Positions 2,038 through 45,968 of a DNA stretch of 64,000 nucleotides are shown here, in pieces. Position 1 is the stretch's first letter. Every line of letters begins with the position of its first letter. Location of the stretch: positions 1 through 64,000 of IMG/VR virus record IMGVR_UViG_3300023179_008562. The stretch is one strand, 5' to 3'. Under the pieces are notes generated by a model. It saw nothing but the letters and a program-made list of their open reading frames with translations. It made no database searches and had not been told where the DNA came from. The position numbers were made by a program, and so were the translations under genes. This stretch comes from a virus.

Positions 2038-3774
2038 TCAAATTCCAGCACCAGGGGCGGTGGGCCCACCAGCGGGTGCTGCAGGCGCATTTCCGGCCAC
2101 CGCACCAGCTTCGGGAGGAGTTTGCCCCAGCGGCATTTCACCACCGATGTCTGGTTCCGGCACGGCCAGGTTGTCCATGTCCTGTTGTATGCCCGCATTG
2201 GTCACGCCCACTGCACGCAATCCTGCTTCACCAGCTGGCGCCTCTTTGGCAGTCTGATTTTCTTCTGCCCAGAGTTCGTCATTTTCCTGCATTTCTTCTT
2301 CGCTAAGATCCAGGAATCTCTTGAGCAGGAAGCGTTTGCTCAGATAGGGGATCTGCTCCAGACTGGTGAATGCCTGGATTCTGACGCCGTCAATTTCACT
2401 CTGACGATACTTGGCAAAATTCTGTGGTTCATTGAATCTGAGTTCAAATAGTTGACCGTCAATGTTGATGCCGCGCCAACGCATGAACATTTTGAATTCC
2501 AGATCCAGCTTTTCCACAATCATGGTCTGCAGACGTTTACAATACTGGTTGAATCGCCATTCTTGAATCAGTGCGGTTGTGGTGCGACCATCGTTATAAG
2601 CCTGTGTGCCATCGTCATCAGTCTGTGGCAAATAACTACTGGGAATACGCAGACCTCTGAACAGCTTATTGGTAAAGAATCTCAGGTCAGTGATTTCGCC
2701 CAGATTGCTACCGCCGGGCAGTGTCTCAACACTGGATCCCCGACCCTCGGCAGTGACTGGAAAGAAGTAGTCCTCATTGGTGCTCAATGGGTTATAGGTG
2801 GCATCCATCATGTTTACCCCACCACCAGTCTGTGTGGGGATACGTCTCTGATGTATTTCGTTTTTGATGCGATCCACAAATGCCATGGCCATGTGTGTGG
2901 GCATGTTACCCACATCAATTTTGAAGATTCTGCGTTCGGGCGCACGTTGTATGCGGTAGATAATGATGGCGTCTTCCAACAGTTCTTTCTGTTTGAAGAT
3001 TTTAAACACACTTTCTAGCACACTGTTGCCAAATGGCCAGTTCAGATCCAGGCCTTCGGTCAGACTCAGATGCATGACATGCTCGGCATTGATGACTGCT
3101 TCATTCTGCGCATGACTGAATCTGGTGCCACCACTGTAGGGCACATTGGGCTGTGTGTATGCACCGCTGGGTCCGCCCACCTGAGGATGATTGACGTAGG
3201 TGTCACTGGCGCTGACTGCAGTGGCAGTCAGATTCTGGAAATTGATGTTGAGGTCTTTGATCACATACTGTTCGGGTTCTTTGCCTTCAGCTTCATTGAC
3301 AATGACCTTGATGACCTTGTGCATTTCGGTCCAGTACAGCTCAAATGTTTCGGGATCACGCAGGAAAACCTGATCACCGTACTTGATGGTGTTGCGCACC
3401 AGCTTGAACAGTCGTTTGTTGAGTTTGTTGAGAGTGACCCACTGCAGCAGTTGATCTTTCAGAATCTTGACTTCATTGTCGGTGGGTTTGTCTTTGAAAT
3501 ATAAATCAAATCCAGTGCCATTGTCGTCATTCAATTGAGTGCAGAAGTCAGCAATGATGTCCAGAGCAGCATTGATTTCTGAATCCATGTCCATCTGCTC
3601 GTATTGATTGTATCGCTCCACACGATTGGGGTGGCCAATGTAAACTTCGGGCAATTTACTGGCGAAATTTCTATAGCCAGGGTCAATTGCCGCCGTTGGT
3701 CCAGTGGCACCACTGATGGGACTCAAGCCACCGCTGACGTTTGCCGATTTAAAATACTTTTTCCATCCTGCCAT
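2038..3774 (-). CDS. gp20: Portal vertex protein (T4 gp20-like)
   Basis: EDAIIIYRIQRAPERRIFKIDVGNMP, EDYFFP, LPGGSNLGEITDLRFF, LRIPSSYL motifs of T4-family portals. Confidence 0.95.
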   Translation of the reverse strand: MAGWKKYFKSANVSGGLSPISGATGPTAAIDPGYRNFASKLPEVYIGHPNRVERYNQYEQMDMDSEINAALDIIADFCTQLNDDNGTGFDLYFKDKPTDNEVKILKDQLLQWVTLNKLNKRLFKLVRNTIKYGDQVFLRDPETFELYWTEMHKVIKVIVNEAEGKEPEQYVIKDLNINFQNLTATAVSASDTYVNHPQVGGPSGAYTQPNVPYSGGTRFSHAQNEAVINAEHVMHLSLTEGLDLNWPFGNSVLESVFKIFKQKELLEDAIIIYRIQRAPERRIFKIDVGNMPTHMAMAFVDRIKNEIHQRRIPTQTGGGVNMMDATYNPLSTNEDYFFPVTAEGRGSSVETLPGGSNLGEITDLRFFTNKLFRGLRIPSSYLPQTDDDGTQAYNDGRTTTALIQEWRFNQYCKRLQTMIVEKLDLEFKMFMRWRGINIDGQLFELRFNEPQNFAKYRQSEIDGVRIQAFTSLEQIPYLSKRFLLKRFLDLSEEEMQENDELWAEENQTAKEAPAGEAGLRAVGVTNAGIQQDMDNLAVPEPDIGGEMPLGQTPPEAGAVAGNAPAAPAGGPTAPGAGI

Positions 3775-3806: not shown

Positions 3807-6533
3807 TTAGTAAGAAGCCGTCAATATATCTCGACTGACTCTGGTGCCACGCTGCTGTTCATTGATCATGCTTCGGGTCAGGTTGGTCTGCTCTTGCATG
3901 GCATCCAGTTGTCGTTGCATCAGACCCACCATTTCTTTATTACTGTCGGCAATGTCACTGGCTGCTTGTTCTGGAGTAACAGTTTGTCCAGCTGCTCGAT
4001 CTTGCTTGAACTGTTCCACTAGGTCCTGAATTTGTTTGGAAAAATCTTCCATTTTTAGATTTCTGGTGTCCTGGAAAGAACCCAGAGCATTGACTTTCTC
4101 ATCGCCCAGATCGTATGTGGTACCGTAACCCAGTAATTCCTTCCAGGTTTTGGTATCAGTGATGGTGCCACCACCAGCCTTGTCAAATGCTCCCAATTTT
4201 TCTGCCATGGCTGCAACAATACGCAGGTCTGTTCTCATGGGACCAATGTTGAGTCCGCTGAATTCTTTCAATCCCGGCAGCAATTCCTTTTCCATGCTCA
4301 TGGCCAACTGAACTGATATGGGTTTACTATCTGACATCGAATTTTTTATACTTGCCGATATTTGATCAGCAATGGCTGCGACGCCAGAAAGATCTTTTTC
4401 TCCGCGGTCTTGGGCGTTGATATTAACTGGAATTGTTTTACCATCTGGTAACGGAACCACTGCTTCAGTTCCATGTAATGTGGCAGCAAATCCAGTGGTT
4501 GGGCCTCTGGCTATACCACCATCTGCGAACATGGGCGAGGACTGTTCATCCCTCCAGCGTTTGTATTCTTCTTCTTTTTTTGCAAATTCTTTATCTACTT
4601 TTAGACGTTCTTGATATGCAGCACGCGCTTTATCCTCTGCGGCCGTTAATTGGGCACTCTTCTGACCAGTGGCCTCCTGCCAGGCAGTGGGCTTCTCTTC
4701 AGATCTGATGGACTTTGCCTCCTGAGCGGTCTGTGTCTGCTCTGTCTGCGCTTGTTCAAGTGCTTTTCCGCCGACACCAAACCCCAGCTCATTCATCATG
4801 TCCTGGACACCTTTGAGCATTTGGGCGGAAATAGCAGCAAAGTTTTTAATGGCTGGAGTCAAAGTTTCTTCTAGGGCCACTTTTAATTTTTGTGCTTGTT
4901 CTTCAGCCCCAACAACCGAGTTGGTTAGCCCATCAGTGGCCTCTTTTTGTTTTGCAGCAGCTTCCTCTGCTGCTGTGATGCCTTCTGCAGTGAATTTTCC
5001 AATTTGGGGCAGCTCGCGACCCATTGCCTCTGACAACTCACCCGCCGCACCGCCGACGCCAGCTAGACCGGCCTTGCCTATGGTGGCGCCCAACGCCAGA
5101 AGTTCTCGTTGATTCTGTTCGGCATGCTTCTTTTGATTTTCCAATGTGCGACGGCCATCCAGAACACCTGCTCGGGCGTCGCGTACCTGATCCTGGGTAA
5201 ATTCTGCCACGCTGGGCATTTGCGCAGCCATGATAGCACCAGTTTTGTTTATGATAGTCCCATACACCATCATGTCAACAAAGTTCTTTCTCTGTTGATC
5301 AGTCATGTTCTGCATGGCCGATTCAATACCAGCGCGTTGTTCGGGGCCCATTTTGGCAAGTTCAGCCTGGAACGCAATATTAGCCGAGGCTTGTCTGGCC
5401 TCGTCCTGACGTTTTTTGGCATCTTCGCCGGTGATGGCAGCAATGACTCTTAGATTTTCAGCATATTTTTGCGTCTGTTCAGCAACCTGCGCTTCTGTGG
5501 CTCTAAGTGGACCAGCTGCACTGCCACGCATGGCCTGCATGACATCAGCCACCAATGCGCCTTGTTCTTCAAAGCCATATCCCAATTTCAATAGAGATTG
5601 CTGCATTTTGCCGCCACCAGCAGCCAGAACTTTGCCGGTGTATTGGGCTGCTTCAGCCACACTCATGCCCGAGCTGGCCAGTTGTGCACTGGATCCTTTG
5701 ACCACCTGGCTGAATTGTTCCACTGTCAGCCCAGCGGCATGTGCAGAGGCGCGCATGCCGGTCATGCCATCGGCAAACATGGCGCCACTGGCGCTCATGC
5801 TATTGAATGCTTTGACTGTCTTTTCTACTTCTTTGGCCGCAATTTCCACACCAAATTTGGCCAATTTGGCGGCGGTTTCCTGAGCTGCATTGGCCAAAGC
5901 TCCCACACCCGACACCAGTGTACCAATTGCAGCAGTCCAGGGCGTGGGTATGGCTGCAATTGCTGCACCAGCACCGGTGATGCCCTTGGCTAGTGCGCCT
6001 GCTCCAGCACTAGCCACATCAATGGCAGTGTTCATCAGACCAGCAGAGAGTTCAGTGCCGCTGGATCCTGCTTGCAATCCTTTGACAAACTGTCCTGCGC
6101 TAGTAACTATTTGTGTGGAAGCAGTGCGCGTGGCTTCACCCACACCTTTGCCAAATTCCTGTGCTTGCTCTTTAAAATTCTGTTGGTAGGCCTGTCTGGC
6201 CACTTCCTCCTTCTGCTCAAGCAATCGCTTTCTTTCGGTGGCATCGCCGTGTGATTCAATGGATTCTTCGATGGCATCATTGAGTTGCTTAAGAAGCTGT
6301 TGCTGATCTTTGTAACCAGCCTCACCACGTTTGACAGACCTGCCCAGATTAACCATGTCTCGAGCAAAATCATCTGATGATCGTTTTATTCGACCATTAA
6401 ATATTTTCATCTCAGAACTGTTCGCATCAAAGCGATCAGTCAACTGTGTGAGTGCCTGAAATACCGCTTCTGCTACCTGGTGAGCGCCTTCTTCATCCAT
6501 GGGTGTTTTACTTTCTTGGGTTTTTAACACCAT
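3807..6533 (-). CDS. Tape-measure-like protein (true start may be ATG at 6500)
   Basis: 908 aa, Ala/Gln/Gly-rich and helical; FADGGIARGP...LHGTEAVVPL motif common in tape measure C-termini; next to the chaperone-like gene. Confidence 0.7.
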   Translation of the reverse strand: MVLKTQESKTPMDEEGAHQVAEAVFQALTQLTDRFDANSSEMKIFNGRIKRSSDDFARDMVNLGRSVKRGEAGYKDQQQLLKQLNDAIEESIESHGDATERKRLLEQKEEVARQAYQQNFKEQAQEFGKGVGEATRTASTQIVTSAGQFVKGLQAGSSGTELSAGLMNTAIDVASAGAGALAKGITGAGAAIAAIPTPWTAAIGTLVSGVGALANAAQETAAKLAKFGVEIAAKEVEKTVKAFNSMSASGAMFADGMTGMRASAHAAGLTVEQFSQVVKGSSAQLASSGMSVAEAAQYTGKVLAAGGGKMQQSLLKLGYGFEEQGALVADVMQAMRGSAAGPLRATEAQVAEQTQKYAENLRVIAAITGEDAKKRQDEARQASANIAFQAELAKMGPEQRAGIESAMQNMTDQQRKNFVDMMVYGTIINKTGAIMAAQMPSVAEFTQDQVRDARAGVLDGRRTLENQKKHAEQNQRELLALGATIGKAGLAGVGGAAGELSEAMGRELPQIGKFTAEGITAAEEAAAKQKEATDGLTNSVVGAEEQAQKLKVALEETLTPAIKNFAAISAQMLKGVQDMMNELGFGVGGKALEQAQTEQTQTAQEAKSIRSEEKPTAWQEATGQKSAQLTAAEDKARAAYQERLKVDKEFAKKEEEYKRWRDEQSSPMFADGGIARGPTTGFAATLHGTEAVVPLPDGKTIPVNINAQDRGEKDLSGVAAIADQISASIKNSMSDSKPISVQLAMSMEKELLPGLKEFSGLNIGPMRTDLRIVAAMAEKLGAFDKAGGGTITDTKTWKELLGYGTTYDLGDEKVNALGSFQDTRNLKMEDFSKQIQDLVEQFKQDRAAGQTVTPEQAASDIADSNKEMVGLMQRQLDAMQEQTNLTRSMINEQQRGTRVSRDILTASY

Positions 6534-6568
6534 AAATACAGAATATATGGCATTATCAATTATTTATA
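6531..6568. promoter_or_regulatory. Face-to-face pair of T4-type late promoters
   Basis: CATAAATA on + (6531-6538) toward the 6581 gene; TATAAATA on - (6561-6568) toward the tape measure gene; TATAAATA is the T4 gp55 consensus. Confidence 0.65.
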
Positions 6569-15452: not shown

Positions 15453-16465
15453 AGATGTCTATATATGTCTAGTAAAATTTTGGAGTCGTAATGCTCGCTA
15501 GAAATATTAGTCAATTGATTGGTGACAATGGTATCTACGCTTTCAAATGCAATATTTCCAATGGCAGTGTCCGAACTCAGATCTAGATTTTTGTTGGGCA
15601 CCAGGGTCATTTCTCTGAGACCATAGGTGCCCACAAACGTTTCCTTGATGAAGGTTGATTCCTCGTAGGTGATATCAATGTCAATGTTAACACGGCAGTG
15701 CATGCCGGGCAACAGCAATTTTTCAGGAGTCTTGAGCACATCACTCAAACCATAGACTCTGTAACGAGGCTGATCAGGCCAGGCATAATACTTCGGCTCT
15801 TGACCCCAAGCGAGTATCATCATACCACGCTCATCATCTCCGGCATCGGCATAGTTATGTGGAAAACAGTTACCAATGTAGGTGATGTTGCCACGTTGTT
15901 GTCGTTTATGAAAGTGCCCAGTAAACACGCGTTCCACCCCGTTAAACGCGTCTTCCCTAATTTCACCATGGTCCGGCATCTGTACCATGGCGTTCATGTA
16001 AAAGTGCGGCAATTCAAAATGTCCAAACATATATTTGGCTTGGATCTTGCCTAGTTTCTTGTGATCATCGCCCACCAACCAAGGCACAATACTGACGTCA
16101 CCTTCAGTGTAGAAGTCATTGACAATTTCAATGTTGGGAATATGTCGAGCCCACTCGGCTGATTGTACATCACGCTTGTCTCTGTAGTACAAATCGTGGT
16201 TACCGGGAATAAAAAACACGCGATCAAAGGCCTGTCCCAACAGTTCCAGCGCAGTGAGACTGTAGTTGAGTGTGACAATGTTGATGGACGCACGATTGTT
16301 GTGCCAGTCACCTGTGACAAAACAGGTGTCACAGCCTTCTGTCTTGGCAGTTGCGATAAACCATTTGACAAAGTTAAGACAGTCGTCGTTGTGTGTCAGA
16401 CTGTTGCTTTTTAATCCAAAATGGATGTCAGTTAACACCGCTGCTTTTTTGAATAAATTACTCAT
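15449..16465 (-). CDS. gp47: Recombination endonuclease nuclease subunit (gp47/SbcD/Mre11-like)
   Basis: Metallophosphoesterase motifs DIHFG, GDW, GNHD, GHF, GHFH; ATG at 16465 overlaps the end of the sigma gene. Confidence 0.94.
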   Translation of the reverse strand: MSNLFKKAAVLTDIHFGLKSNSLTHNDDCLNFVKWFIATAKTEGCDTCFVTGDWHNNRASINIVTLNYSLTALELLGQAFDRVFFIPGNHDLYYRDKRDVQSAEWARHIPNIEIVNDFYTEGDVSIVPWLVGDDHKKLGKIQAKYMFGHFELPHFYMNAMVQMPDHGEIREDAFNGVERVFTGHFHKRQQRGNITYIGNCFPHNYADAGDDERGMMILAWGQEPKYYAWPDQPRYRVYGLSDVLKTPEKLLLPGMHCRVNIDIDITYEESTFIKETFVGTYGLREMTLVPNKNLDLSSDTAIGNIAFESVDTIVTNQLTNISSEHYDSKILLDIYRHL

Positions 16466-17330
16466 CGTAATGGCCACCACCCCATTCGTTTTGTCGGGTA
16501 TAACTGGGATTATAGTTGTTCATTTCCAGGATGTCATCTCGGATGTTCTGGTTGCGTTTTTCTATATTCAATACTCGAGTAAAACTGTTGGTAATAGCAG
16601 CGGTATAATAAGCAAATGGATTCTGTGATTTTGATTCATCAAATTGCAGACCAATCTGACTCAGCTGCAGCAGGGCCTGACTGCGCATCTCGTCGTTGTA
16701 GGTATAGCCTCGCCAGTTGCTGCGTGTGGCATAACGTTCGCACAGTTTGACAAACATATGAGCCAATTTGGGTGTCATGGCACCATGATCTCGACTGAAC
16801 ATGCCAGATTCCAAATCGCCCATCCAATGACTCCGGCCCACCAGCACAGGAGTTAGATCTTCAGTAACCCGGTAGTGTTGAAAAGGTGGGAAGTTGACCT
16901 TGACGTATTTGGCTGGTGCTCGAATCTGTATGGGTGGTTCGTCATATTCGGTCTCTGCCAGTTCATCTTCATAATCTTCCTGTGCTTTGGCGTCAGCCTT
17001 GCGTTGTTTGACATCATCAATGGGAATGTGCTCCCAGGACATGACACGAAAAATAATATCAGTGATGGGCACGGAAGTGGGTGCTATGGTCACGGCCTCT
17101 AATTTGACTTTGTTGCCCTGCGCCAGTTCGGCATCTTGTGCTTCTTTGCTGAGTCTGTCGGCCCGTAATTTTCTGGCCTCGGTGATGGTCTTTTTGGTAA
17201 TCCTGCCAACTGAGTCTACGATCATGTCATAATTGGCATCTTCTGGTGTGGAGAAACTACAGTATGTGATTTTGCTACGGTGTATTTCTTTTAGTATGTC
17301 TTTATTGTTTAGGTAATTGACTTTACGAAT
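16458..17330 (-). CDS. gp55: Late-transcription sigma factor (T4 gp55-like); proposed start is the non-canonical ATT at 17330
   Basis: [11 protein letters not shown]-terminus; [35 protein letters not shown] motifs; gene order 55-47-46 as in T4; AAGGGG SD 7 nt before ATT. Confidence 0.85.
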
Positions 17331-17976
17331 TTTGATTCCCCTTTTTATCTTGTGCAGCACGTCTGGCCTCTGACCAAGGTTTTCCTCGGTGCACTTTGCC
17401 AATATTTTCTCTGTGTTGTTCACTAAACGGTGCTTTGGGTTTTCCTGCTAGTGACCCGCTAATTTTTTTTCTGTGTTCAGTTGACAATGGTTTATTAATT
17501 TTGGCATTTGACATTTTTTCTTTGGATTCAACTGATCTTGTTTTTCCTTTATTGGATTCACTAATTTTTCTTTTTGTCTCTTCACTACAAGGGCGCTTTG
17601 CTCTATTTTTTGCAGCTATCGATCTTTTTAACCGGGTTTCAGCCGACTCGTTTCTTTTAGCATACGCTAATTTTTCTCTGGTTTCAAGACTTGGATTACT
17701 AATTCCTTCGCCACCATCTGTTCTATTATGCAGAATACCAGTTCCTAAATCTTTACGCCCGTATTCTGCAATCAATTTTTTTTCTAAATCGTGTGCCTGT
17801 TGTTCGGTTAAACTATCTTTAATGAAGATAATATTTGATTGATTTTTGGGAACTGGGGTAAAATGTTTAACATAAGCTCTGTTGCCGGTGCCTTTGCCTA
17901 TGTAATATGGGGTTCCTGATTTGCCTGTATTCGAGTCTTTGTCTCTAAGATAAGCATAAACATAAAAGTTTGACAT
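17323..17976 (-). mobile_element. Free-standing GIY-YIG homing endonuclease with NUMOD3 repeats
   Basis: FYVYAY...PYYIGKG..R, E..LI..YG, N.TDGGEG catalytic domain; repeats such as [30 protein letters not shown]; own CATAAATA promoter (17993-18000) and AAGG SD. Confidence 0.88.
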
Positions 17977-18029
17977 AAAATACCTTTTATATTATTTATG
18001 CTTCTATTAAGATAATTAACCTTGCGCAC
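17898..18029 (-). pseudogene. Orphaned original 5' end of the sigma gene (MRKVNYLN..., 43-aa remnant ORF)
   Basis: AAGGA SD then GTG CGC AAG GTT AAT TAT CTT AAT, encoding the same RKVNYLN as the sigma N-terminus; then runs out of frame into the endonuclease gene and stops at TAG 17898-17900. Confidence 0.75.
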
Positions 18030-18054
18030 CTGGGTTTTCCTTTTAACAACTACT

Positions 18055-18084
18055 ATTATATAGCAAATAAATATTCAATAGCAA
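18055..18084 (-). promoter_or_regulatory. Sigma70-like promoter for the sigma/gp47 operon, overlapping a divergent late promoter
   Basis: Minus strand TTGCTA-N18-TATAAT; plus strand ATAAATA at 18067-18073 lies inside the spacer. Confidence 0.5.
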
Positions 18085-18100
18085 AGGTTTATCTACCAAA

Positions 18101-19411
18101 ATGGCAATCTTTCTCCCTGATTCTCAAGTGGCTGACCCCATCACCGGGCAAACTGTGAGTTTTGGCTCACTGTCCCGAGATAATCAGGCGGCAGTCATGG
18201 AACAACAATACGCTGGTGAACGCGCCGATTTCAGATCTGCTGCAGGAGCATTGCGGCAGGCTGACTCCACCACCAATTCAGATCAGCAGATGAGTGATTA
18301 CTCTACGCCAGCCACCACCAATGGTGGATTTGTGGTGGGTGACGATGGCACAGTTTATGCACCATCAGGTGCAGTGAATGGTCAGCTCACCAGTTTTCCT
18401 GATGCAGCACAGGGCGACACCACATATTTTGGTGGTGGTACACAGGATGCATTTGCTGATACCTACTATAATGACGCTGGATCTGAAATAGGTACCACCA
18501 CAAATTTTGGCGATGGGCCCGACACTAATTTCAATCCTGAAGCCGACAACACTGCTGCATTGAGTGACCCCACTGCTGCCAGACAGGACGCCAGTGGGCT
18601 ACCGCCTGGCGGTGAACCACCAGGCGCCACCGGCGACACTCAGGTGGCGTTTCAGGCCACCAACGATGCCACACCATCAGCAGCTGATAGTGACTGGCGG
18701 GTGAGAATCAGCCTGGCCGACGGTGCCAACATATTTTACAAATCCACTGGCAGTAATCAGAATGAATTAATGCGGCCTCTGATTGAAACCAATGGTGTCA
18801 TCTGGCCCTATACTCCGGCCATCACTGTGACACATTCGGCCACTTATAATCAGACCAATCTGACACACAGCAACTATAACCCAAGTTTTTACCACCATAG
18901 TGATGTATCGGACATCAGCATCAGTGGTGAATTCACAGTACAGAGCCAGGAAGAAGGTCGATATCTCATGGCTGCGGTTTACTTTTTCAGATCAGCCACC
19001 AAGATGTTCTTTGGACAAGGGGCCAATGTGGGCAATCCTCCACCCATAGTGTTCCTGGACGGTTATGGTAGTCATTATTTTCCACACGTGCCCTGTGTGA
19101 TCACCAGTTTTGCTCACACCCTGCCAGCTGATGTGGATTATATCAGCGTGGACATCACCAGTTCAGAAATGGTGACCACCAGCACAGGGCCTGCCAGAAA
19201 CATCAGCCAAAATGGCGGCATCAGTGGCGGCCGAACTCGCGAACTTAAGACTGTGACCACCAGCACCCGAGTGCCCACCATGAGCACCATTGCGGTCACA
19301 GTCAAGCCCATGTACAGTCGCAAGAATTTGCATGACCGATTTAACCTGGACAAATTTGCTGCTGGGCTGTTGTTGGCAGACAGAAAAAATGGATATGGGG
19401 GATTCATCTGA
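18101..19411 (+). CDS. Baseplate/tail-tube initiator-like protein (gp48/gp54-like)
   Basis: First gene of the baseplate operon; C-terminal PYTPAI, FFRSATKMFFG, GNPPP, VPCVITSF tube-like domain; acidic low-complexity N-terminus. Confidence 0.55.
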   Translation: MAIFLPDSQVADPITGQTVSFGSLSRDNQAAVMEQQYAGERADFRSAAGALRQADSTTNSDQQMSDYSTPATTNGGFVVGDDGTVYAPSGAVNGQLTSFPDAAQGDTTYFGGGTQDAFADTYYNDAGSEIGTTTNFGDGPDTNFNPEADNTAALSDPTAARQDASGLPPGGEPPGATGDTQVAFQATNDATPSAADSDWRVRISLADGANIFYKSTGSNQNELMRPLIETNGVIWPYTPAITVTHSATYNQTNLTHSNYNPSFYHHSDVSDISISGEFTVQSQEEGRYLMAAVYFFRSATKMFFGQGANVGNPPPIVFLDGYGSHYFPHVPCVITSFAHTLPADVDYISVDITSSEMVTTSTGPARNISQNGGISGGRTRELKTVTTSTRVPTMSTIAVTVKPMYSRKNLHDRFNLDKFAAGLLLADRKNGYGGFI

Positions 19412-25271: not shown

Positions 25272-25322
25272 TAAACAACGTACATTTTCCTAATAATAAA
25301 TATATAATATCAGGAATTACAC

Positions 25323-40700: not shown

Positions 40701-41945
40701 ATTGCCGCGGGTCAATTAAACGCCAGTAATTTATCAGTTTACCCCACTGACACTCGTACTGGATATTACCGCTCTCTGACAGAGCTGCCAGCGGCTACCA
40801 GCCTGGATTTTGACAATGTTGAGTTCATTGATGACATTAATATTTTGACTCAGCTAAGAAGAGGCACACAGGGAACCAAAGCTGGAATTCAGAGCGCCGG
40901 GTTGGCAGTGCTGGACGCTGGTGTAGATCAGAATATTCCTGGGATCAATATAACAGCAACAACCATTACTGGTAATGTGACATATCATACAACATCGACA
41001 CCGCCATACGAGTTATTACTGTCTGGTAATGTCGTACCCGAATTGGGCAGCTATATCACACAGTCCAGCAGTGGTGCAAATGTGACTGTGACTGCCATCA
41101 GTGATTCACCTGCTGACACCATTCAGTTAAGTGGGGTAATGTCTGCATTGCCGGGAGATTATATCACTCAACCCAGTACTGGTGCCAATGCTCTGATAAG
41201 AAACTCATCAGAAAACCAGATCTATCTGGACATTGTGTATACAGCAGGGCAATTTGGAATTGGGTCCGGTAACGTTTTCATCAACGGCAAAAACACTGGA
41301 GTATATCCCACCGCAGCCAAGCAACGTGGAGCATCACGCATTACTGTGACCTATAATACACCCACACCATTCGATTTCACAGATGCCACTATAGAATTAA
41401 GTGGAAGTGTCACAGTCAACTCCGGGGACTTGATTGGTCAACTCGTTGGTGGTGCTGAGCTACGGGCGAGTCGCACTACTATTGACTCTAATCGGATATA
41501 TACAGTTTACCAGAATACCAATGACCTTGTCATTGGTCAGGGCAATATACAGATCAACGGTCAGCCGACTTCAGTTTATCCAATAAATAGAACTTATAAT
41601 TCCACAATATCTAATGAAATCACCATTGACGGTGTTCGCCAACAGTTAATTTGCCCTGTGTCAGTGTCCTTGGTTGGTGGAACTGATGCAAACGGAAATG
41701 TGACACTGACCACAGGTACAAAAGTTTTACAAGAGAAAATTTGGTATAGTCCTGGTGTAGGCACTGCTGCCAACGGTGAGGGATTTGATACAACTTCAAC
41801 CGAGCAAGTTTTGTTCCTTAAACAGCGTGCTGCAGAATTACTGACCAGTTCGGAATTGTCTGATGAGGGCGATGAAGATATAGTAAATATACTAATTACT
41901 GAAGACGGAAAAATACTGTCGGCTGAGTTCGGAGGTTATCAATGA
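28776..41945 (+). CDS. Giant 4389-aa virion structural protein (baseplate wedge/gp7-like position) with FG-GAP beta-propeller repeats
   Basis: Uninterrupted 13.2-kb ORF after gp6; repeated FG(S/T/Y)..A.GAP motifs; W.P...Y..G carbohydrate-binding-like motifs; GQGYTSEPTITIVGGG repeats. Confidence 0.75.
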   Translation: MAARKSSNLLPGVFQTDTNQKFLSATVDQLISEPRLTKVNGYIGRKFAPTYKSGDNYITEISADRQNYQLEPSLLVKDESGQITFFASYDDFLNKIKYYGGFTDKQSRLFEQEYYSFDPGISYDAFVNFSQYYWLPDGPEAVSVNTTTIELVKNFRVVRNVASDRYDFYDNNIVNNSITLARGGTYTFTVNQPGIPFWIQTELGIDGAINATPAISSRDVLGVENNGTDSGVITFRVPQSDAQDRFVKMKTVYNVDYAFSMAYADIHNSRLSEFLEKFPEYYGITNQFVGKTLVLVDQNLLTSRGEAAWSGDGIYDEQNYNTNPFDSSDIIPENQRSGVWQILYSESGVPEDPIIKLVPVLVLKQDQKVFVKSGIRASREFYQDYDGLLKPMPLLSNLQDTLYFQDGDSAGIYGFLKVVNPANDVIDVDREIIGKKLYTSPNGVKFTNGLKVRFGSDVSPVQYQNQEFYVERVGRGIHLVPVDILVRPEAYNDEIAQNYSDEIFPEYITINRDSIDLNAWSRNNRWFHIDVIIKTAAYNNRQPALDQRARAQRPIIQFDVNFQLFNNGRTAKKPIDILDVTTSDPFNAYDGQIIESIFGIKPFDGMRILFSAAEDPLVRNKIYVINLIQYDLDDSGLPTGPRRIALSIAEDGDAAVWDSVVVTQGQYRGVTWWFNGNQWVQGQQKTQLQQEPLFDIIDSDGRSLSEFYRSTFNGTRLFGYVRNAAGVTDKILGFALKYRNFGTQGDIEFENYYDTDVFSYVENQLTQSDLRISDYGFLYEIQSDGELAPRNNWRTAVESSRQYQILNFTYDGINNSFQLDVVAAESTSVPSLKVYKNNVFLQTNEYQLVDNKLTVTASLATNDKIDVLIYSRKPSNIGYYEVPSNLNLNAQNIDLNQISLGQVRNHLVALSQNSTELVGNILSTNNLRDIDITSQGGTILQHSAPVTYSMLFLMDKSANFIDALRFAQLEYSKFKNKFLELAQTLGGIESMTPEAGVDAIMVSLTNIKNISFPWYYSDMVPYGTLKRVVNGQGYTVFDPLVRSYEINGVFNDQVLSSRAVLVYLKKYNQNNFVQLINRLDYTFDQTRPAVTIESRVELDIDDVIKIVEYDNTDGNYIPETPTKLGLYPRYVPEIFLDNTYRQPINVIRGHDGSIIPAFNDYRDNLILELEKRIYNNIKLPETNINSDIMSLTPGKFRSSDYTLGEVTQLISRSFLAWVGNNRLDFSTNQTFASNDSFTWNYSGSQDRIDGEYMPGNWRACYQYYYDTQRPHLTPWEMLGFTSQPDWWQDYYGPAPYTGANQVLWDDLEAGRIRQGFRSLIDQGQGPGIDPTFARPGLSQVIPVDEHGILLSPAQILARSTHPKSAASAWKVGDFGPVEWAWRSSSDYPFAVQRAMALGKPARYFGLLIDTYGYKSDSLIDQYLTPNKNHLRQTDVKFNGDITQTGVVRSAGYINWIIDYLKNQGLDPVSKLSYILKNYQVNLAYKMSGFTDKKFIRVLAEQSSPSSTNDSIMIPDENYQIHLHKSTPIQKLTYSAVIVQKTTNGYSVKGYNLNNPFFTIIPSQTNNNSTKIQVLTEIATIFKDYQRVKLTVPYGYEFKNPQQVVDFLISYERYLLSQGFTFNGRDPDLRQPRNWKLSAQEFLFWSQQGWGVGSILVLSPTVNDLALVTKNAVVDEISNSQIGSRILDQNFKLVKNNNYNVVRTPTDFKISLSVTGSTIGFVELDLVQYEHALIFDNLTVFNDIIYKPELGNRQYRLKLIGQKTSNWDGSLNAPGFVYSSDQIQTWQPGRDYQRGELVQYKAQYWVALEFVIATTDFAWTKWKQIEQSQVRVGMLPNLSTLAVKGLISYDNYGQIQDSDQLKYSYGLIGYKPRQYLTDLGLSDATQIELYKGYIKQKGTENAVNQLTKSKFNNINSDIKYYEEWAVRVGEYGALNMNPYVEIALDETNFGVNPSLARFVEDTSRDQGDGITVFNKTQLYGSSGHFSGFVALNRSVISDISNDIPTAGYVNIEDIDATLFDLSYYSYIGLDIDYVGSGYTIWCARDFAGDWNVYRVTETDNHIISVANSLDNYVSFTTQAPHQLTIGDVFLVKGLNSAFDGFYRVHQTQGLDQIIALYQGDPANYQNLTSLDGFAMLLRLDSMRFRYMEDARIYGLNNPLHGWKAGDKIWIDVDAATTTANGQSQDTESGTWKVYEKTMPWGLQQNLSKASGEYVTNDGFGTSVKMNADGLYAVVGSPKSLNTGTVTVFNKNASGVLVEGEQLLPKLDQTLDYGAEVSLATERLAIGAPGSVSNTGRVFVYNRPTGTSTFLPTQVLSGPANSAGRFGSSLTFDEVGNWLYVGAPDEDRVYVYGLNPRVSVKTQSLAINSPTNIITLSFSPDVPNNAESLLITGVNRIFLPDIDYTVTGRIITFASNLSSGDYEITQRSYYTLVKVLTGPAGSEFGYAVSASLDGAQLAVGAPNDSVTVDDAAIPGAGAVYVYDRSIEAFNTITDATDTEGVTYQTRGNIGLIYRVTINNTEVSDYVVAGDHTLKFKKTPVIGQVIYVETNEFKLLEKLIGIDSLEGGLTAIQENCRFGTSLTICSNNCAIYVGAPNYDAGTQYNTGAVWKFHNRGRLYGTNTGSTRDPVFTPGDTIRLDNFEITVTGTSLDDLVQDINNASVLGVTATNQNGHLRLDSDRTVAKNLLRILSGENNTGDTDGVSNVYAAAGLSVFAFMQIIVTPYRNANEQFGKRVVLARNAYMLVIASDGGTTRHYTTFDQDQTYIDDRSTGIFDSVVNSGSVYIYELYDDPRNEVEHPGRYAFAQQLDPGQLRAGDRFGAAIDVVGRQIVVTAPTSDLVKTDAGAVYVFNNPTGHRGWHLIRYQEPRVDIETVNRMYLYDTISHTILTNLEFIDPAKGKILGLAEQEITFKTPYDPAYYNRGASTQTDLDRNLYWGPSQIGQVWWNLDNVRYLDYEQGDLSYRSANWGRVFPGSTVEVCEWVESDVLPSQYSGDGQAKHADDSAYVEIMTVDPVTNIITSKYYYWVTGKTELDYNIPFRKLPLNSIRNLIENPRNQDIAYAALIRNNAVVFYNLGKYLSARNTILHLDYELQPNDSLIHSEYDLLQVGNVSSAIPEKIVNRMIDSLSGINNTGANVPDPTLPPANRYGISIRPRQTMFVDRLQAMSDLVDFVNSIFITKPITRQYDLRQLMSEEPIPDVKYSEYDHQVETRIELDYIDTVKTPVGYRVLVKIDTTQDGLWVIYQLRSDRTWQVTRVQRYKTELYWDFVDWYAEGYNITDKIEYVVETLVDALALPARPGDEILIRVNRGLNNVRGWNLISVSDNGEFQVVGIENGTIQLKSSLYNLTDNQLGFDGRGFDSSRYDQNPNIEIRQILAALKDDIFVNELRSEFNNLFFVMINYLMTEQKYVDWIFKTSFISVAHKLRDLNQYPNYVKDNQTYYLDYINEIKPYATKVREYLIKYAGDDNYAGDVTDFDLPPYYDRELGQWRSPDGEYIEQDRQLWATGYLADGTLINPDYPQWYQHRHHQIVAIVVEDSGQGYTSEPTITIVGGGGNVIAARARARIDFDTGQVIDIEIVSSGNGYASTPTVVINGSCERPARAYAVLKNLQVRSFDSTLKFDRINYTSLVKEWAANTVYAAGDILTYAVPDGGTLVRTAYRVLNNMVTGAQFDPTNLEICPADYFTNANDRIIAYYQPLTGAVGRDLRKLISGIDYPGVGITGLTFDRQPGFDGLLDGEPFDAVEYDEDGNPILSRSAVDTIIRSNYLDSNLGLRPEDIDVDGGAYVDTYSSHAPEELVPGIVFDTLNLKVYTKVALGTTLLGYRIFVDMLGVPHYTRIASAYSTKLTRDLNLNDQRMYVADATVLARPDPTTATPGVVFVNAERITYYRNYATEVRFWVPNVSYRSDTVLSHGNIITFSGPVTANIGDTIHQPDSGANIRVVSNVVSSLEVPAQYTLSQGRIVGNVLIMGSGTVQIIAAGQLNASNLSVYPTDTRTGYYRSLTELPAATSLDFDNVEFIDDINILTQLRRGTQGTKAGIQSAGLAVLDAGVDQNIPGINITATTITGNVTYHTTSTPPYELLLSGNVVPELGSYITQSSSGANVTVTAISDSPADTIQLSGVMSALPGDYITQPSTGANALIRNSSENQIYLDIVYTAGQFGIGSGNVFINGKNTGVYPTAAKQRGASRITVTYNTPTPFDFTDATIELSGSVTVNSGDLIGQLVGGAELRASRTTIDSNRIYTVYQNTNDLVIGQGNIQINGQPTSVYPINRTYNSTISNEITIDGVRQQLICPVSVSLVGGTDANGNVTLTTGTKVLQEKIWYSPGVGTAANGEGFDTTSTEQVLFLKQRAAELLTSSELSDEGDEDIVNILITEDGKILSAEFGGYQ

Positions 41946-43813
41946 CAATTAAAATTAGCCAGTTAGGAACACTGAGTACACTGGCTGGAAACACTCTTAT
42001 ACCAGTGGTGGAATCCACAGGAACTGGATTTACCAGCAAAAAAATTCAGGCGTCTGCTCTGAGAAGTTTTTTTGCCAATCTTGCCACCGGTGGAGATTCG
42101 GCAAATTTAAGAATTAATTCTGATTTAATCCCATCGGCCGCTGGGACATATAACCTGGGGTCTGCTGGCTCGCCCTATGCTGATTTTTATCTGTCAGGAA
42201 CTCTGGCTACCAGCAGTGTCATACAAAATACTTCTAATATTCAATCGCAGTCCACAACCACTGGTGCATTGGTGGTACAGGGTGGAGTTGGGGTAACCGG
42301 CAACATCAATGCTCAAAGTGTTGCTGCAACCAGTTTGACTGGTACACTTGCCACGCCTAATCAACCCAATATCACTGGGGTTGGGGTAATTACCAGTGGT
42401 ACCTGGCAAGGGATGTCCATCACTAATACATATCTGGCCAACAGCAGCCTGACAATCAACGGCACAAGTGTATCACTGGGCGGCATTGCGACCGTCACAG
42501 CCAACGCAGCAACCCTGACTGGTACCGCCCTGAACTCAACCGTTGTTGCATCGAGTTTGACATCAGTGGGTAACCTGACTTCATTGAGTGCTCGTGGTGC
42601 AATTACCACAACCGGTAATATAAGTGCCGCGTATTTCATTGGTGACGGCAGCCAATTGACCAATGTTCCGGCCAGTGCTCTGATTGGGACTGCCTCGTCA
42701 ATTGCAGTGAGCGGAAATATCACTGCAGGCAACGTTTCAGCAACTAGATTGACTGGTACATTAACTACGGCATCACAAACTAATATCACAGCAGTGGGCA
42801 ATATTGTCACTGGCACCTGGTCAGCGACACCAATTCAGAACGCATACTTGGCCAATAGCAGTATTACCATCAACGGCACAGCGGTATCATTGGGCGGCAG
42901 TGCAACTGTCACAGCCAACGCAGCCACACTGACTGGTACAACATTAAACGCAACAGTAGTTGCTTCAAGTTTGACATCAGTTGGTAACATCACAAGTGGT
43001 ACCTGGTCGGGTTCAGTAATTCAACCAGCTTACATTGCTACCCTGAACCAGAACACCACAGGAAGTGCAGCCAGCTTGACCACCTCACGTAACATCAACG
43101 GAGTGGCATTCAATGGCACAGCTGACATCACTGTCACAGCCAATGCGGCTACCCTGACTGGTACAACATTGAACTCAACAGTTGTGGCATCAAGTTTGAC
43201 CTCAGTGGGCAACCTGACTGCACTGAGTGCCAGTGGCAATATTAGTACTACCGGTAACGTTATTGCTGCCAAATACTACGGCGACGGTAGCAGCCTAACT
43301 GGAGTAGTGGCCACTGGTATCGGTAACCTGACGTCAATCACAGTGGGAAATATCACTAATGCCAATACCAATGGTGTTGGGAATATTGGGTCATCCACAA
43401 ATAGTTTTAATACTATATTTGCTCGAGCAACGTCTGCACAATACGCGGATATTGCCGAATGTTATTTGGCAGATGCTGCGTATACACCAGGCACAGTTCT
43501 GGAATTTGGTGGCAAATTTGAAGTCACTGAATCCACTGATGAGTCTCAGAGAATTGCTGGTGTGGTGTCCACCAATCCTGCATACGTCATGAATGATCAA
43601 TTACAAGGTCAGCACGTGGTGCAAGTGGCACTATTGGGCCGTGTGCCCTGTCGAGTTCGTGGAAAAATATTCAAAGGTGACTTCATGGTGGCAGGCGGCA
43701 GCGGCTATGCCAGGCCCACTGCCTATCCCAAATTTGGCACTGTGATTGGCAAGGCACTGGAAGATTTTGATGGTGTTGATGGTATTATTGAAATCGTGGT
43801 GGGTAGGCTCTGA
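41942..43813 (+). CDS. Tail fibre/spike with internal repeats and C-terminal intramolecular-chaperone-like domain
   Basis: IKISQL N-terminus; Thr/Ser/Gly-rich repeats; QYADIAECY...GVVSTNPA...GRVPCRV...IGKALE tail (Peptidase_G2-like). Confidence 0.72.
   Translation: MTIKISQLGTLSTLAGNTLIPVVESTGTGFTSKKIQASALRSFFANLATGGDSANLRINSDLIPSAAGTYNLGSAGSPYADFYLSGTLATSSVIQNTSNIQSQSTTTGALVVQGGVGVTGNINAQSVAATSLTGTLATPNQPNITGVGVITSGTWQGMSITNTYLANSSLTINGTSVSLGGIATVTANAATLTGTALNSTVVASSLTSVGNLTSLSARGAITTTGNISAAYFIGDGSQLTNVPASALIGTASSIAVSGNITAGNVSATRLTGTLTTASQTNITAVGNIVTGTWSATPIQNAYLANSSITINGTAVSLGGSATVTANAATLTGTTLNATVVASSLTSVGNITSGTWSGSVIQPAYIATLNQNTTGSAASLTTSRNINGVAFNGTADITVTANAATLTGTTLNSTVVASSLTSVGNLTALSASGNISTTGNVIAAKYYGDGSSLTGVVATGIGNLTSITVGNITNANTNGVGNIGSSTNSFNTIFARATSAQYADIAECYLADAAYTPGTVLEFGGKFEVTESTDESQRIAGVVSTNPAYVMNDQLQGQHVVQVALLGRVPCRVRGKIFKGDFMVAGGSGYARPTAYPKFGTVIGKALEDFDGVDGIIEIVVGRL
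42434..43213 (+). repeat. Three imperfect intragenic repeats (TVTANAATLTGTxLNxTVVASSLTSVGN)
   Basis: Copies at about 42434-42574, 42848-42989 and 43130-43213, similar at both protein and DNA level. Confidence 0.85.
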
Positions 43814-45927: not shown

Positions 45928-45968
45928 TCAGGTTTCGAATAAATATATACTATTATAGGTCATAAACG

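Follow-up and report, generated by a model that had tools for sequence, protein, structure and literature searches.

On the standard view, a homing endonuclease gains entry to an essential coding sequence either by riding in an intron or intein that splices itself out or by dividing the protein in two. A route by which such an element supplies its own gene start we found described only as a mirror image, in fungal mitochondria, and partly for MobA of T4. The mitochondrial counterparts are mORFs that carry a foreign gene end, present in atp6 of Allomyces macrogynus and in atp6, atp9, cox2, and nad3 of Glomus sp. (PMC3630166). They encode LAGLIDADG endonucleases or, in atp9, a GIY-YIG enzyme, and the protein sequence of their duplicate gene ends is conserved whereas the DNA has diverged, largely through synonymous changes (64–81% identity). 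The inserted ends have their relatives in other lineages, a sign of horizontal transfer, and expression of the hybrid genes was shown by RT-PCR (PMC3630166). The MobA element of T4-like phages comprises mobA and an N-terminal extension of gene 60; its HomR is 67–81% identical in DNA to the parental sequence, and the downstream part has a new start, which overlaps the endonuclease ORF out of frame by 8–32 nt (bioRxiv 10.1101/2022.08.31.505936; PMC2988022). T4 also harbors free-standing GIY-YIG endonucleases of the Seg type (SegB, SegF, SegG), known for 'intronless homing' and for control by a late promoter within a hairpin (PMC2988022). As for unusual start codons, the E. coli genes infC and pcnB are initiated at AUU, and translation measured at the infC junction is the sum of reinitiation and de novo initiation (PMC3592434).

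Here we analyze a stretch of 64,000 nt (the window) from an uncultured freshwater (lake) jumbo phage, in which a late sigma gene harbors an endonuclease gene after its eighth codon. Our preferred reading, to which we assign a probability of about three in four, is that a GIY-YIG homing-type cassette entered at this codon, that sigma is restarted from the cassette without any splicing, and that the cassette is mobile or recombining. Like the mORFs, this cassette consists of an endonuclease ORF within a gene that has no intron, brings a protein-conserved, DNA-diverged duplicate of a gene end, and leaves the native end as an unused remnant. The mORFs, however, replace the 3′ (C-terminal) end, often in phase, whereas the sigma cassette replaces the 5′ end and must therefore also supply a Shine–Dalgarno sequence (SD) and a start codon. 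Moreover, its host is a phage and its target a regulatory sigma factor, and it is known from sequence alone, in contrast to the RT-PCR data from mitochondria. It works like a mORF but, being neither mitochondrial nor located at a 3′ end, falls outside that group.

The parallels with MobA are equally close: both are free-standing phage endonucleases inside an essential ORF with neither intron nor intein, both carry a target-homologous region and a new start for the downstream part, and both occur as independent pairs of filled and empty alleles—that is, with and without the endonuclease—in several clades. The new sigma start overlaps the endonuclease ORF by 8 nt in the window and by 32 nt in a related contig (L082), compared with the 8–32 nt of MobA. 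MobA, however, is an HNH enzyme that splits topoisomerase into two polypeptides and requires a 50-nt ribosomal bypass, whereas the sigma cassette encodes a GIY-YIG enzyme and does not divide the gene product, at the cost of no more than an 8-codon stub and with no need for a bypass.

Results

A late sigma gene with a stub and a second copy of its start

The locus lies on the minus strand throughout, and all coordinates below refer to that strand. The sigma ORF (16,458–17,330; 290 codons when counted from ATT) matched phrog_12791, 'sigma factor for late transcription' (E 6e-78), as well as phrog_234 (E 2e-23), and in tblastn was 39–44% identical to the late sigma factors of PA5oct, Phosso, Atu_ph07, and Rak2-like jumbo phages; a Pfam search of the protein gave no match. 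These similarities assign it to the gp55-type late sigma family, and an SbcD/gp47-like gene directly follows it. Among isolated phages, the sole blastn match was a short one (73%), to Synechococcus phage S-SRM01, so the phage has no close isolate.

The original sigma promoter is sigma-70-like (TTGCTA, 18 nt, TATAAT; 18,055–18,084; 10 of 12 matches), and its –10 region together with the next bases (tataatagtagt.gtt.aaaagga) is also present upstream of the endonuclease-free relatives L006, L008–L010, and L052. It is followed by the original SD, AAGGA (18,038–18,042), at the position where endonuclease-free relatives have the same AAAAGGAA, and then by GTG plus seven codons (GTG CGC AAG GTT AAT TAT CTT AAT, 18,029–18,006; M-RKVNYLN), after which the reading is truncated. 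In endonuclease-free relatives the alignment revealed the predicted uninterrupted protein start, directly behind the same promoter and SD. What separates the stub from the rest of the gene in the window is a 29-nt leader (17,977–18,005) and an endonuclease gene of 217 codons' worth of protein (217 aa; 17,323–17,976). Within the last endonuclease codons, a new SD (AAGGGG, 17,338–17,343) stands 7 nt before an ATT that opens a second copy of the sigma start (ATT CGT AAA GTC AAT TAC CTA AAC, 17,330–17,307; I/M-RKVNYLN), in frame onward to 16,458. The endonuclease TAA (17,325–17,323) falls within sigma codons 2–3, and the 675 nt between the two start copies consist of 646 nt of endonuclease ORF and the 29-nt leader.

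The stub and the replacement copy agree in seven of seven residues, although six of the seven codons differ, all by synonymous third-position changes. As a chance control, we counted identical 7-residue words that recur on the same strand no more than 2 kb apart: codon-shuffled windows contained zero or one such pair, and in the window itself every pair other than stub and copy stems from true paralogous repeats. The stub and its copy are not a chance match. Both this pattern of differences and the coordinates of the two starts with their SDs had been read by the earlier note, and the sequence bears them out.

We found no minus-strand terminator from the sigma-70-like promoter down to the sigma gene. 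The original promoter now lies upstream of the stub, so that early transcripts of sigma have to traverse the endonuclease gene. The stub GTG also opens a leftover ORF of 43 codons (17,898–18,029) that runs out of frame across the endonuclease start. We rejected it as a conserved upstream ORF: its length varies, with an early stop in the contigs L243 and L005, and since this length is not conserved the ORF is probably a by-product.

Neither intron nor intein

Could the insert be removed as a group I intron or an intein, with the GTG stub as the true first exon? In favor of this, the stubs of the window and of several relatives still have their SD and start codon and read M-RKVNYLN perfectly. 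However, an Rfam scan of 16,800–18,400 at E values up to 1 found no RNA family, and outside the endonuclease ORF the insert amounts to just 29 nt, in keeping with the earlier view that it contains no ribozyme. An intein is excluded by the stub ORF, which is out of frame with the endonuclease and ends after its 43 codons, and there is thus neither a ribozyme core nor an in-frame Hint domain. In addition, the stub of L005 has decayed—ATC replaces ATG and a TAA follows the junction—while sigma itself remains intact there, at 94% identity to the empty allele L004. Splicing would, moreover, make the downstream start copy redundant. We therefore regard removal by splicing as extremely improbable and return to the reading in which sigma is restarted from the cassette.

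The insert encodes a GIY-YIG homing-type enzyme

The insert had been taken for a homing endonuclease gene within the first codons of a gp55-like late sigma gene, and this assignment holds; the gene is free-standing, is placed after codon 8, and encodes an enzyme of the GIY-YIG type. The 217-aa protein matched the homing endonuclease family phrog_314 and, in three stretches, NUMOD3 (PF07460, E 2e-7). Direct searches did not recover the catalytic domain: the Pfam GIY-YIG model gave no match at E values up to 10, phmmer with the single protein found nothing in the PDB, and Foldseek against the PDB returned only weak GIY-YIG matches (E 0.1–0.6). A profile search and a VIA-align search were needed. 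A profile of 34 endonuclease homologues matched the GIY-YIG chain 9u75 (E 1e-3), with Y7, Y9, Y24, Y25, G27, R33, E65, and N84 among the residues invariant in all 34. For the AlphaFold model (pLDDT 86.6), the top three structural matches in VIA-align were all GIY-YIG domains, namely 9u75 (Z 7.2, rmsd 2.8, 71 aligned), that of UvrC (Z 5.8), and the I-TevI catalytic domain (Z 5.6); residues 97–215 were modeled as helical repeats. The protein thus has the GIY-YIG catalytic fold with its conserved Tyr motifs, Arg, Glu, and Asn, and the C-terminal DNA-binding modules of GIY-YIG homing endonucleases. Between copies, dN/dS was ~0.1 (0.08–0.14) at dS values of 0.7–2.9, indicative of strong purifying selection.

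By fold and motifs, the enzyme resembles the Seg endonucleases, with which it shares a GIY-YIG domain followed by C-terminal DNA-binding modules, its free-standing state, and perhaps a T4-like gene order. Seg genes, however, are intergenic, cut a neighboring gene, derive immunity from polymorphism, and have no duplicated gene start.

The leader carries a late-promoter-like motif

A further likeness to the Seg genes is a late-promoter-like motif in the 5′ arm of a predicted hairpin covering the ribosome binding site. In the 29-nt leader, ATAAATA (17,999–17,993), a possible TATAAATA-like late promoter motif, precedes the endonuclease SD (AAAGG, 17,987–17,983) and occupies the same leader position in eight of eight lineages. 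The motif is not enriched in the window (nine found versus 10.7 expected), and five of the nine sites lie 17–30 nt upstream of gene starts. A hairpin is predicted at 17,952–18,003, with ATAAATA in its 5′ arm and the endonuclease SD and AUG in stem and loop (–13.4 kcal/mol, z –3.3; 2 of 200 shuffles as good). The L163 hairpin reached –12, and those of L082, L164, and L005 were weaker or absent (three of the five lineages folded), so that support for this predicted structure is modest. We also considered that the stub might once have reached beyond codon 8, with sigma codons 9–16 as the source of the endonuclease promoter and SD, and discarded this idea, the alignment being no better than shuffles (p 0.25–0.85).

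Recurrence and modular exchange of the cassette

We recovered 13 other metagenomic contigs from about nine lineages (L163, L165, L166, L082, L164, L005, and L243–L249) with the same stub-plus-copy layout at the same codon. The stub junction, AAT followed by A, is common to eight lineages, and in eight lineages stub and copy agree in protein but have diverged in DNA. An exact search for the 25-nt leader plus stub in viral contigs gave no matches.

The cassettes carry one of two 3′ modules, each consisting of the endonuclease C-terminal domain and the sigma start, the latter being ATT in type A and ATG in type B. Sequence comparisons show that these modules have been exchanged between lineages. 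L163 and L165 are 99–100% identical upstream and over endonuclease nt 1–480, drop to 49% over the endonuclease 3′ part and the sigma start, and recover to 88% over sigma nt 1–300 and 96.6% further on. Conversely, the 3′ blocks of L165 and L082 are 97% identical, against 74–80% for the rest of both loci. The replacement start is thus physically joined to the 3′ end of the endonuclease gene and travels with it (in type A, with the type A C-terminal module), which upholds the earlier proposal that the element carries its own gene start.

Filled and empty alleles side by side

We compared 80 of the 597 sigma loci in IMG/VR. In the sigma tree, all filled alleles fell into one 16-row clade (support 99), in which they are interleaved with empty alleles. 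Close pairs illustrate the difference at this one site, as expected for a homing endonuclease: the flanks of filled L005 and empty L004 are 93–94% identical, those of filled L082 and empty L006 91%. In four runs from four studies (lake metagenomes, depth 2–15), contigs that skip 699–720 nt across the insert occurred alongside filled contigs. The matching sides at these joints are short (28–50 nt, at 85% likeness), and the skipping contigs are evidence that these lakes also harbor endonuclease-free relatives; they do not demonstrate that a single strain underwent excision or homing. Runs from 2018 and 2022, from different studies, contained filled contigs without a single difference over 17,292–18,048.

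Stubs share 14.5 of 18 bases with empty alleles, the same as the empty-versus-empty mean. The cassette-borne copies are somewhat more deviant, with 12.0 versus 14.6 of 18 bases in common with empty alleles. Stub and copy have 13 of 18 bases in common, at the low end of ordinary between-lineage variation (12–17 of 18), and the divergence of the two starts is about that between alleles of different lineages. Their synonymous differences need not be adaptive.

These data also bear on whether the cassette is an old, immobile fossil, created by one accidental insertion with duplication and since then inherited vertically, its enzyme domesticated and its absences due to deletions between the repeats. 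The dS of 0.7–2.9 between endonuclease copies means that the arrangement is old, a single sigma clade holds all filled alleles, and the 24-nt direct repeat could mediate precise loss of the cassette. The fossil account is at odds, however, with recent exchange of the 3′ module, seen in the L165/L082 blocks and in the otherwise identical L163/L165 pair. It is also at odds with the stubs, which resemble fresh empty alleles even though the endonucleases are saturated at silent sites, a combination for which repeated invasion or co-conversion is the easier explanation. That the GIY-YIG/NUMOD3 protein is under strong purifying selection is as one would expect of an active homing enzyme, though no proof of it. 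Altogether, we consider a fossil origin improbable and favor a cassette that is mobile or recombining.

ATT as the likely start codon of sigma

Two upstream codons compete with ATT for sigma initiation within the same cassette layout; were either used, ATT would be an ordinary internal isoleucine codon and sigma would gain an N-terminal extension of 10 or 31 residues. The GTG at 17,423, named as the rival start by the earlier note, is indeed in frame and is where ORF finders begin the sigma ORF. A nearer competitor, overlooked there, is the GTG at 17,360–17,358, in frame 10 codons upstream of ATT and preceded by GAGG and 6 nt. In L243 and in the L244 group, moreover, an in-frame ATG lies seven codons upstream of ATT.

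None of these upstream canonical codons is conserved, however: the position of 17,360 reads CTG in L163 and is absent in L249, and the ATG of L243/L244 lacks an SD and arises from a Tyr codon of the endonuclease frame. In L163 and L249, the reading frame from the upstream stop to ATT is devoid of ATG, GTG, and TTG. By contrast, AAGGRG + 7 nt + ATT CGT AAA GT is kept in all nine type A contigs, with ATT the sole start feature conserved in every type A copy. Likewise, the sigma protein begins 2–4 residues before NYLNN in 80 relatives, and the phrog_12791 alignment sets in at residue 2 of the ATT-started protein (profile position 5). Initiation at an upstream GTG is hence a reading to which we give little credence, and the replacement sigma start is most likely the rare start codon ATT, as first proposed.

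The same start occurs outside the cassette. Eight endonuclease-free relatives display GGAG + 6–7 nt + ATT, and seven of the eight have no canonical start between the upstream in-frame stop and ATT; in L028 that stop lies only two codons before ATT, whereas L053 has a TTG upstream of its SD. On the sigma tree the ATT state needs at least four changes. The absence of a canonical start, together with a conserved and properly spaced SD, is the pattern that suggests AUU-initiated genes.

Among type A copies, ATT and the endonuclease stop are never more than 5 nt apart, and in L163, L243, and L249 the stop comes first. We rejected an endonuclease–sigma fusion by frameshifting, given that sigma is in the +1 frame, that the A-rich run before the stop gives no –1 route, and that in the latter three contigs the stop comes before ATT. 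The stop/ATT geometry would fit coupled translation of endonuclease and sigma. The eight endonuclease-free sigma genes with SD and ATT mean, however, that such coupling is not required. The arrangement recalls infC and pcnB, where a weak AUU behind a good SD also stands a few nucleotides from the stop of the upstream gene; the junction reads UAA GGU AUU in infC and UAA A AUU in L163, L243, and L249. Unlike infC with its IF3-dependent autoregulation, the gene here encodes a phage sigma factor, and the case for AUU initiation is made by sequence conservation only.

Discussion

We propose that the cassette has three parts: a short leader with the late-promoter-like ATAAATA and an SD, the endonuclease gene, and—in and just after the last endonuclease codons—a new SD with re-spelled sigma codons 1–8. 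The original promoter, SD, and first eight sigma codons would remain as a dead stub. Sigma would be transcribed by read-through from the old promoter and translated from the cassette-borne start, putatively AUU in type A cassettes, and splicing would play no part in its expression. The enzyme would presumably cut sigma alleles that lack the endonuclease, its probable target, and the cassette would spread as the double-strand break is repaired. The re-spelled copy may be immune to cleavage, and the late promoter and hairpin may control the endonuclease.

More tentatively, and on balance doubtful, type A cassettes may resist loss. A weak AUU near the endonuclease stop could be served by termination–reinitiation, making sigma partly dependent on endonuclease translation. 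If so, nonsense or frameshift mutations in the endonuclease would lower late transcription, and selection at the level of the phage would keep the endonuclease intact. ATAAATA would then close a positive loop in which sigma drives the endonuclease and endonuclease translation boosts sigma.

For annotation, the locus is a reminder that standard gene callers extend the sigma ORF to the GTG at 17,423 or miss ATT starts; the sigma family offers at least 17 natural SD-plus-ATT starts of at least four origins. The exchange of a block that unites DNA-binding domain and sigma start is a clear case from nature of how target specificity can travel together with target repair. Beside the intron or intein and the split protein, the sigma cassette would represent a third way into an essential gene, in which the element comes equipped with SD, start codon, and first codons while the old start stays behind as a stub. 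Should translation of sigma prove to be coupled to that of the endonuclease, the switch that times late phage gene expression would have a selfish element built into it.

A second, re-spelled sigma start overlaps the end of the endonuclease gene

On the minus strand of the window, a sigma-70-like promoter (TTGCTA, 18 nt, TATAAT; 18084–18055) and an AAGGA Shine-Dalgarno sequence (SD; 18042–18038) precede GTG CGC AAG GTT AAT TAT CTT AAT (18029–18006), the original sigma gene start left upstream of an insert, hereafter the stub. Directly 3′ of the stub lie a 29-nt leader (AGAAGC ATAAATA ATATAAAAGG TATTTT) and a 217-codon endonuclease ORF (ATG 17976 to TAA 17325–17323), whose final codons contain AAGGGG (17343–17338), 7 nt before a second, cassette-borne start, ATT CGT AAA GTC AAT TAC CTA AAC (17330–17307). 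As the earlier note had described, this copy is recoded: the seven post-start residues are the same as in the stub, and six of seven codons are re-spelled, at third positions only. It runs in frame from its ATT through a sigma ORF of 290 codons (17330–16458). Codon-shuffled control windows held 0–1 pairs each of the same seven-residue word at most 2 kb apart, and all other such pairs in the window were true paralogous repeats. Among the latter, a 623-aa ORF (41942–43813) carries three tandem protein repeats (...TVTANAATLTGT...VVASSLTSVGN...) at 42488–43200, spaced by ~70–140 codons.

Judged by its sequence, the ORF downstream of the endonuclease encodes a gp55-type late sigma factor. When the protein is read from the ATT, it aligns with phrog_12791 ("sigma factor for late transcription"; E 6e-78) from residue 2 onward, and it shares 39–44% identity with late sigma factors annotated in the jumbo phages PA5oct, Phosso and Atu_ph07 and in the Rak2-like group. 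An SbcD/gp47-like gene comes next, the same succession as in T4; the two genes overlap by 23 nt (16458–16480), with no ORF between them. In two related contigs, a second, different GIY-YIG-like ORF (223 aa, YGYVYEW...YIGS) sits between these genes (L082:2603–3274, L005:2986–3657). The parent IMG/VR record, at 90.7 kb and a rated completeness of 26%, is consistent with a genome of ~350 kb.

The inserted ORF encodes a GIY-YIG endonuclease with NUMOD3 repeats (E 2e-7) and a match to phrog_314 (homing endonuclease); the Pfam GIY-YIG model gave no match to the protein. A profile of 34 endonuclease sequences, whose invariant residues include Y7, Y9, Y24, Y25, G27, R33, E65 and N84, found GIY-YIG chain 9u75 (E 1e-3), and the top three structural matches of the AlphaFold model (pLDDT 86.6) are all GIY-YIG domains (9u75, Z 7.2; UvrC, Z 5.8; I-TevI, Z 5.6). 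The N-terminal domain is under purifying selection (dN/dS 0.08–0.14, dS 0.7–2.9).

Empty alleles and a recurrent layout without splicing

We compared the locus with 80 related sigma loci from IMG/VR (of 597; L-numbers). The nearest endonuclease-free loci among them, L006–L011, share the tataatagtagtagtt-aaaagga leader of the window and continue at once with ATG AGA AAG GTN AAT TAT CTN AAY AAT AAA GA, the uninterrupted sigma start that had been predicted for such relatives. Stub, endonuclease gene and second sigma start recur at the identical junction AAT|A in 13 more contigs from about nine lineages (L082/L162, L005, L163, L164, L165, L166, L243, the L244–L248 group and L249). This junction is conserved in an eight-lineage alignment, with ATAAATA (17999–17993 in the window, minus strand) immediately behind it in all eight. 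The L249 stub reads MSKVKYLN, and an extra G+C-rich segment of ~50 nt between ATAAATA and the endonuclease SD of that contig (L249:920–1050) may be a different leader structure.

The stub of L005 has decayed (ATC for ATG, one extra codon, and TAA directly after the junction), while the sigma gene of this contig remains intact and matches the empty allele L004 at 94% identity; the stub is therefore dispensable. Together with an Rfam scan of the locus that returned no RNA family and non-coding room of only 29 nt, this rules out splicing, so that the insert cannot be read as a spliced intron and the proposed absence of a ribozyme holds.

In a quick sigma protein tree, all filled alleles (those with the insert) fall within one 16-row clade (support 99), interleaved with empty ones, and filled/empty pairs are 93–94% (L005/L004) and 91% (L082/L006) identical in their flanks. 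Four lake metagenome runs, from four studies, supplied Logan contigs that were mapped onto 17000–18300 of the window. Filled contigs with zero differences over 17292–18048 came from one 2018 and one 2022 run. The same lake runs contained contigs joining 17315–17331 to 18019–18037 (699–720 nt skipped, depth 2–15). The matching sides of these joints are short and the accepted likeness was 85%; the joints are evidence of endonuclease-free relatives sharing these waters, not of excision within one strain.

Exchangeable 3′ modules and re-spelling

The N-terminal 160 residues of the endonuclease are homologous across all copies, and the C-terminal part exists in two unrelated versions. Type A (the window, L163 and L243–L249) has more NUMOD3-like repeats and the sigma start ATT CGT AAA GT (I/M-RKV); type B (L165, L166, L082, L164 and L005) has unrelated sequence and the sigma start ATG ACC/GCA CGT/AGA CGN GT (M-T/A-RRV). 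The identity of L165 to L163 and to L082, respectively, is 99% and 77% in the upstream 130 nt, 100% and 80% in endonuclease nt 1–480, 49% and 97% in the endonuclease 3′ part plus sigma start, 88% and 74% in sigma nt 1–300, and 96.6% and 80% in sigma nt 300–860. Thus, a block comprising the DNA-binding part of the endonuclease and the sigma start was exchanged between lineages, and a tract of lowered identity extending into sigma was left behind. The metagenomic contigs L163 and L165, 99–100% identical outside the swapped block, may be recombinant siblings and make a natural pair well suited to conversion-tract measurement.

Over the 18 nt encoding (K/R)VNYLN, in a small sample of non-independent comparisons, empty alleles share on average 14.6 bases with one another (range 12–17), stubs 14.5 and cassette-borne copies 12.0 with empty alleles, and stub and copy of the same genome 10–13. 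The stubs resemble normal alleles that functioned until recently, and the copies deviate more, which fits a start travelling with the endonuclease and does not conflict with selection for a site that cannot be cut; most of this deviance is accounted for by ordinary divergence between lineages. The native sigma coding sequence is complete from codon 2 on downstream of the insert, so insertion alone does not disrupt the putative cleavage site, and any immunity would have to come from the new spelling or the replaced upstream half.

A predicted ATT start for the sigma gene

AAGGRG, 7 nt and ATT CGT AAA GT are retained in all type A contigs, and the sigma frames of L163 and L249 are devoid of ATG, GTG and TTG from the upstream stop to the ATT. 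This conservation, with ATT as the sole option in two contigs, supports the proposed ATT start at the sequence level. GTG 17360 of the window is CTG in L163; an ATG seven codons upstream of the ATT in L243 and the L244 group lacks an SD and arises incidentally where the endonuclease frame encodes Tyr. That two studies yielded zero-difference contigs speaks against the ATT being an assembly error.

Eight endonuclease-free relatives (L027–L029, L035, L041, L042, L048 and L053) carry, downstream of a promoter region of their own, a strong GGAG SD, 6–7 nt and ATT AAA CAY AAT TAY; their sigma starts map to around position 3001 of the respective locus. Seven of the eight lack a canonical start from the upstream in-frame stop (two codons before ATT in L028) to the ATT, and their next canonical codon follows 31–88 codons downstream, past the family's best-conserved motif; the exception, L053, has a TTG upstream of the SD and another two codons after N. 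Other relatives start with GTG (10) or TTG (2). The ATT state takes at least four changes on the sigma tree, and it appears that weak initiation codons have repeatedly been favoured in this late sigma gene; in E. coli, AUU is 6–8 times weaker than AUG.

The endonuclease stop of type A either precedes the start (TAA-A-ATT in L163, L243 and L249) or overlaps it (ATT CGT AA in the window and the L244 group), a closeness that makes sigma–endonuclease translational coupling geometrically possible. The E. coli infC junction UAA GGU AUU is translated via both reinitiation and de novo initiation (PMC3592434). Coupling is not required, since endonuclease-free ATT genes exist.

Putative late control of the endonuclease

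Five of the nine ATAAATA sites in the window lie 17–30 nt upstream of starts (6533, 17976, 18101, 25323 and 45969), and those upstream of genes are candidate phage late promoters. Sites at 6532–6567, 18067–18073, 25296–25302 and 45939–45945 stand 17–45 nt before starts 6581 (plus strand), 6533 (minus strand), 18101, 25323 and 45969, with those at 6532 and 6561 forming a divergent pair. A predicted hairpin at 18003–17952 (−13.4 kcal/mol, z −3.3), similar in L163 and weaker in three other lineages, places ATAAATA in its 5′ arm and the endonuclease SD and AUG in stem and loop. T4 I-TevI/II/III, segB and mobE have the same late-motif/hairpin arrangement, with the ribosome binding site masked in read-through transcripts and free in late ones (PMC2988022, section 12); by analogy, the cassette may be controlled likewise.

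Relation to known mobile elements

The sigma cassette is the mirror image of fungal mitochondrial mORFs, which supply a foreign end for the C-terminal part of the gene while the native end persists as a relic, the two having diverged mostly at synonymous sites (PMC3630166). The T4 MobA element carries sequence homologous to the target that it displaces (67–81% DNA identity), together with a new N-terminal start whose overlap with mobA is 8–32 nt; unlike the sigma cassette, it splits the protein and needs bypass (bioRxiv 10.1101/2022.08.31.505936). A review of T4 mobile DNA describes gene-splitting endonuclease insertions in nrdA, gene 60 and gene 43 but none that duplicates a gene start (PMC2988022), and our literature search found no paper on an endonuclease within a gp55-type gene.

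The observation of the earlier note is thus confirmed, and its interpretation, an element that invades the sigma gene without splicing by carrying a recoded gene start, is supported, with AUU initiation, cleavage target and immunity, and translational coupling as putative parts. The window adds the type A module, an ATT start that recurs independently in sigma genes lacking the endonuclease, the module exchange and the polymorphism seen in lakes.
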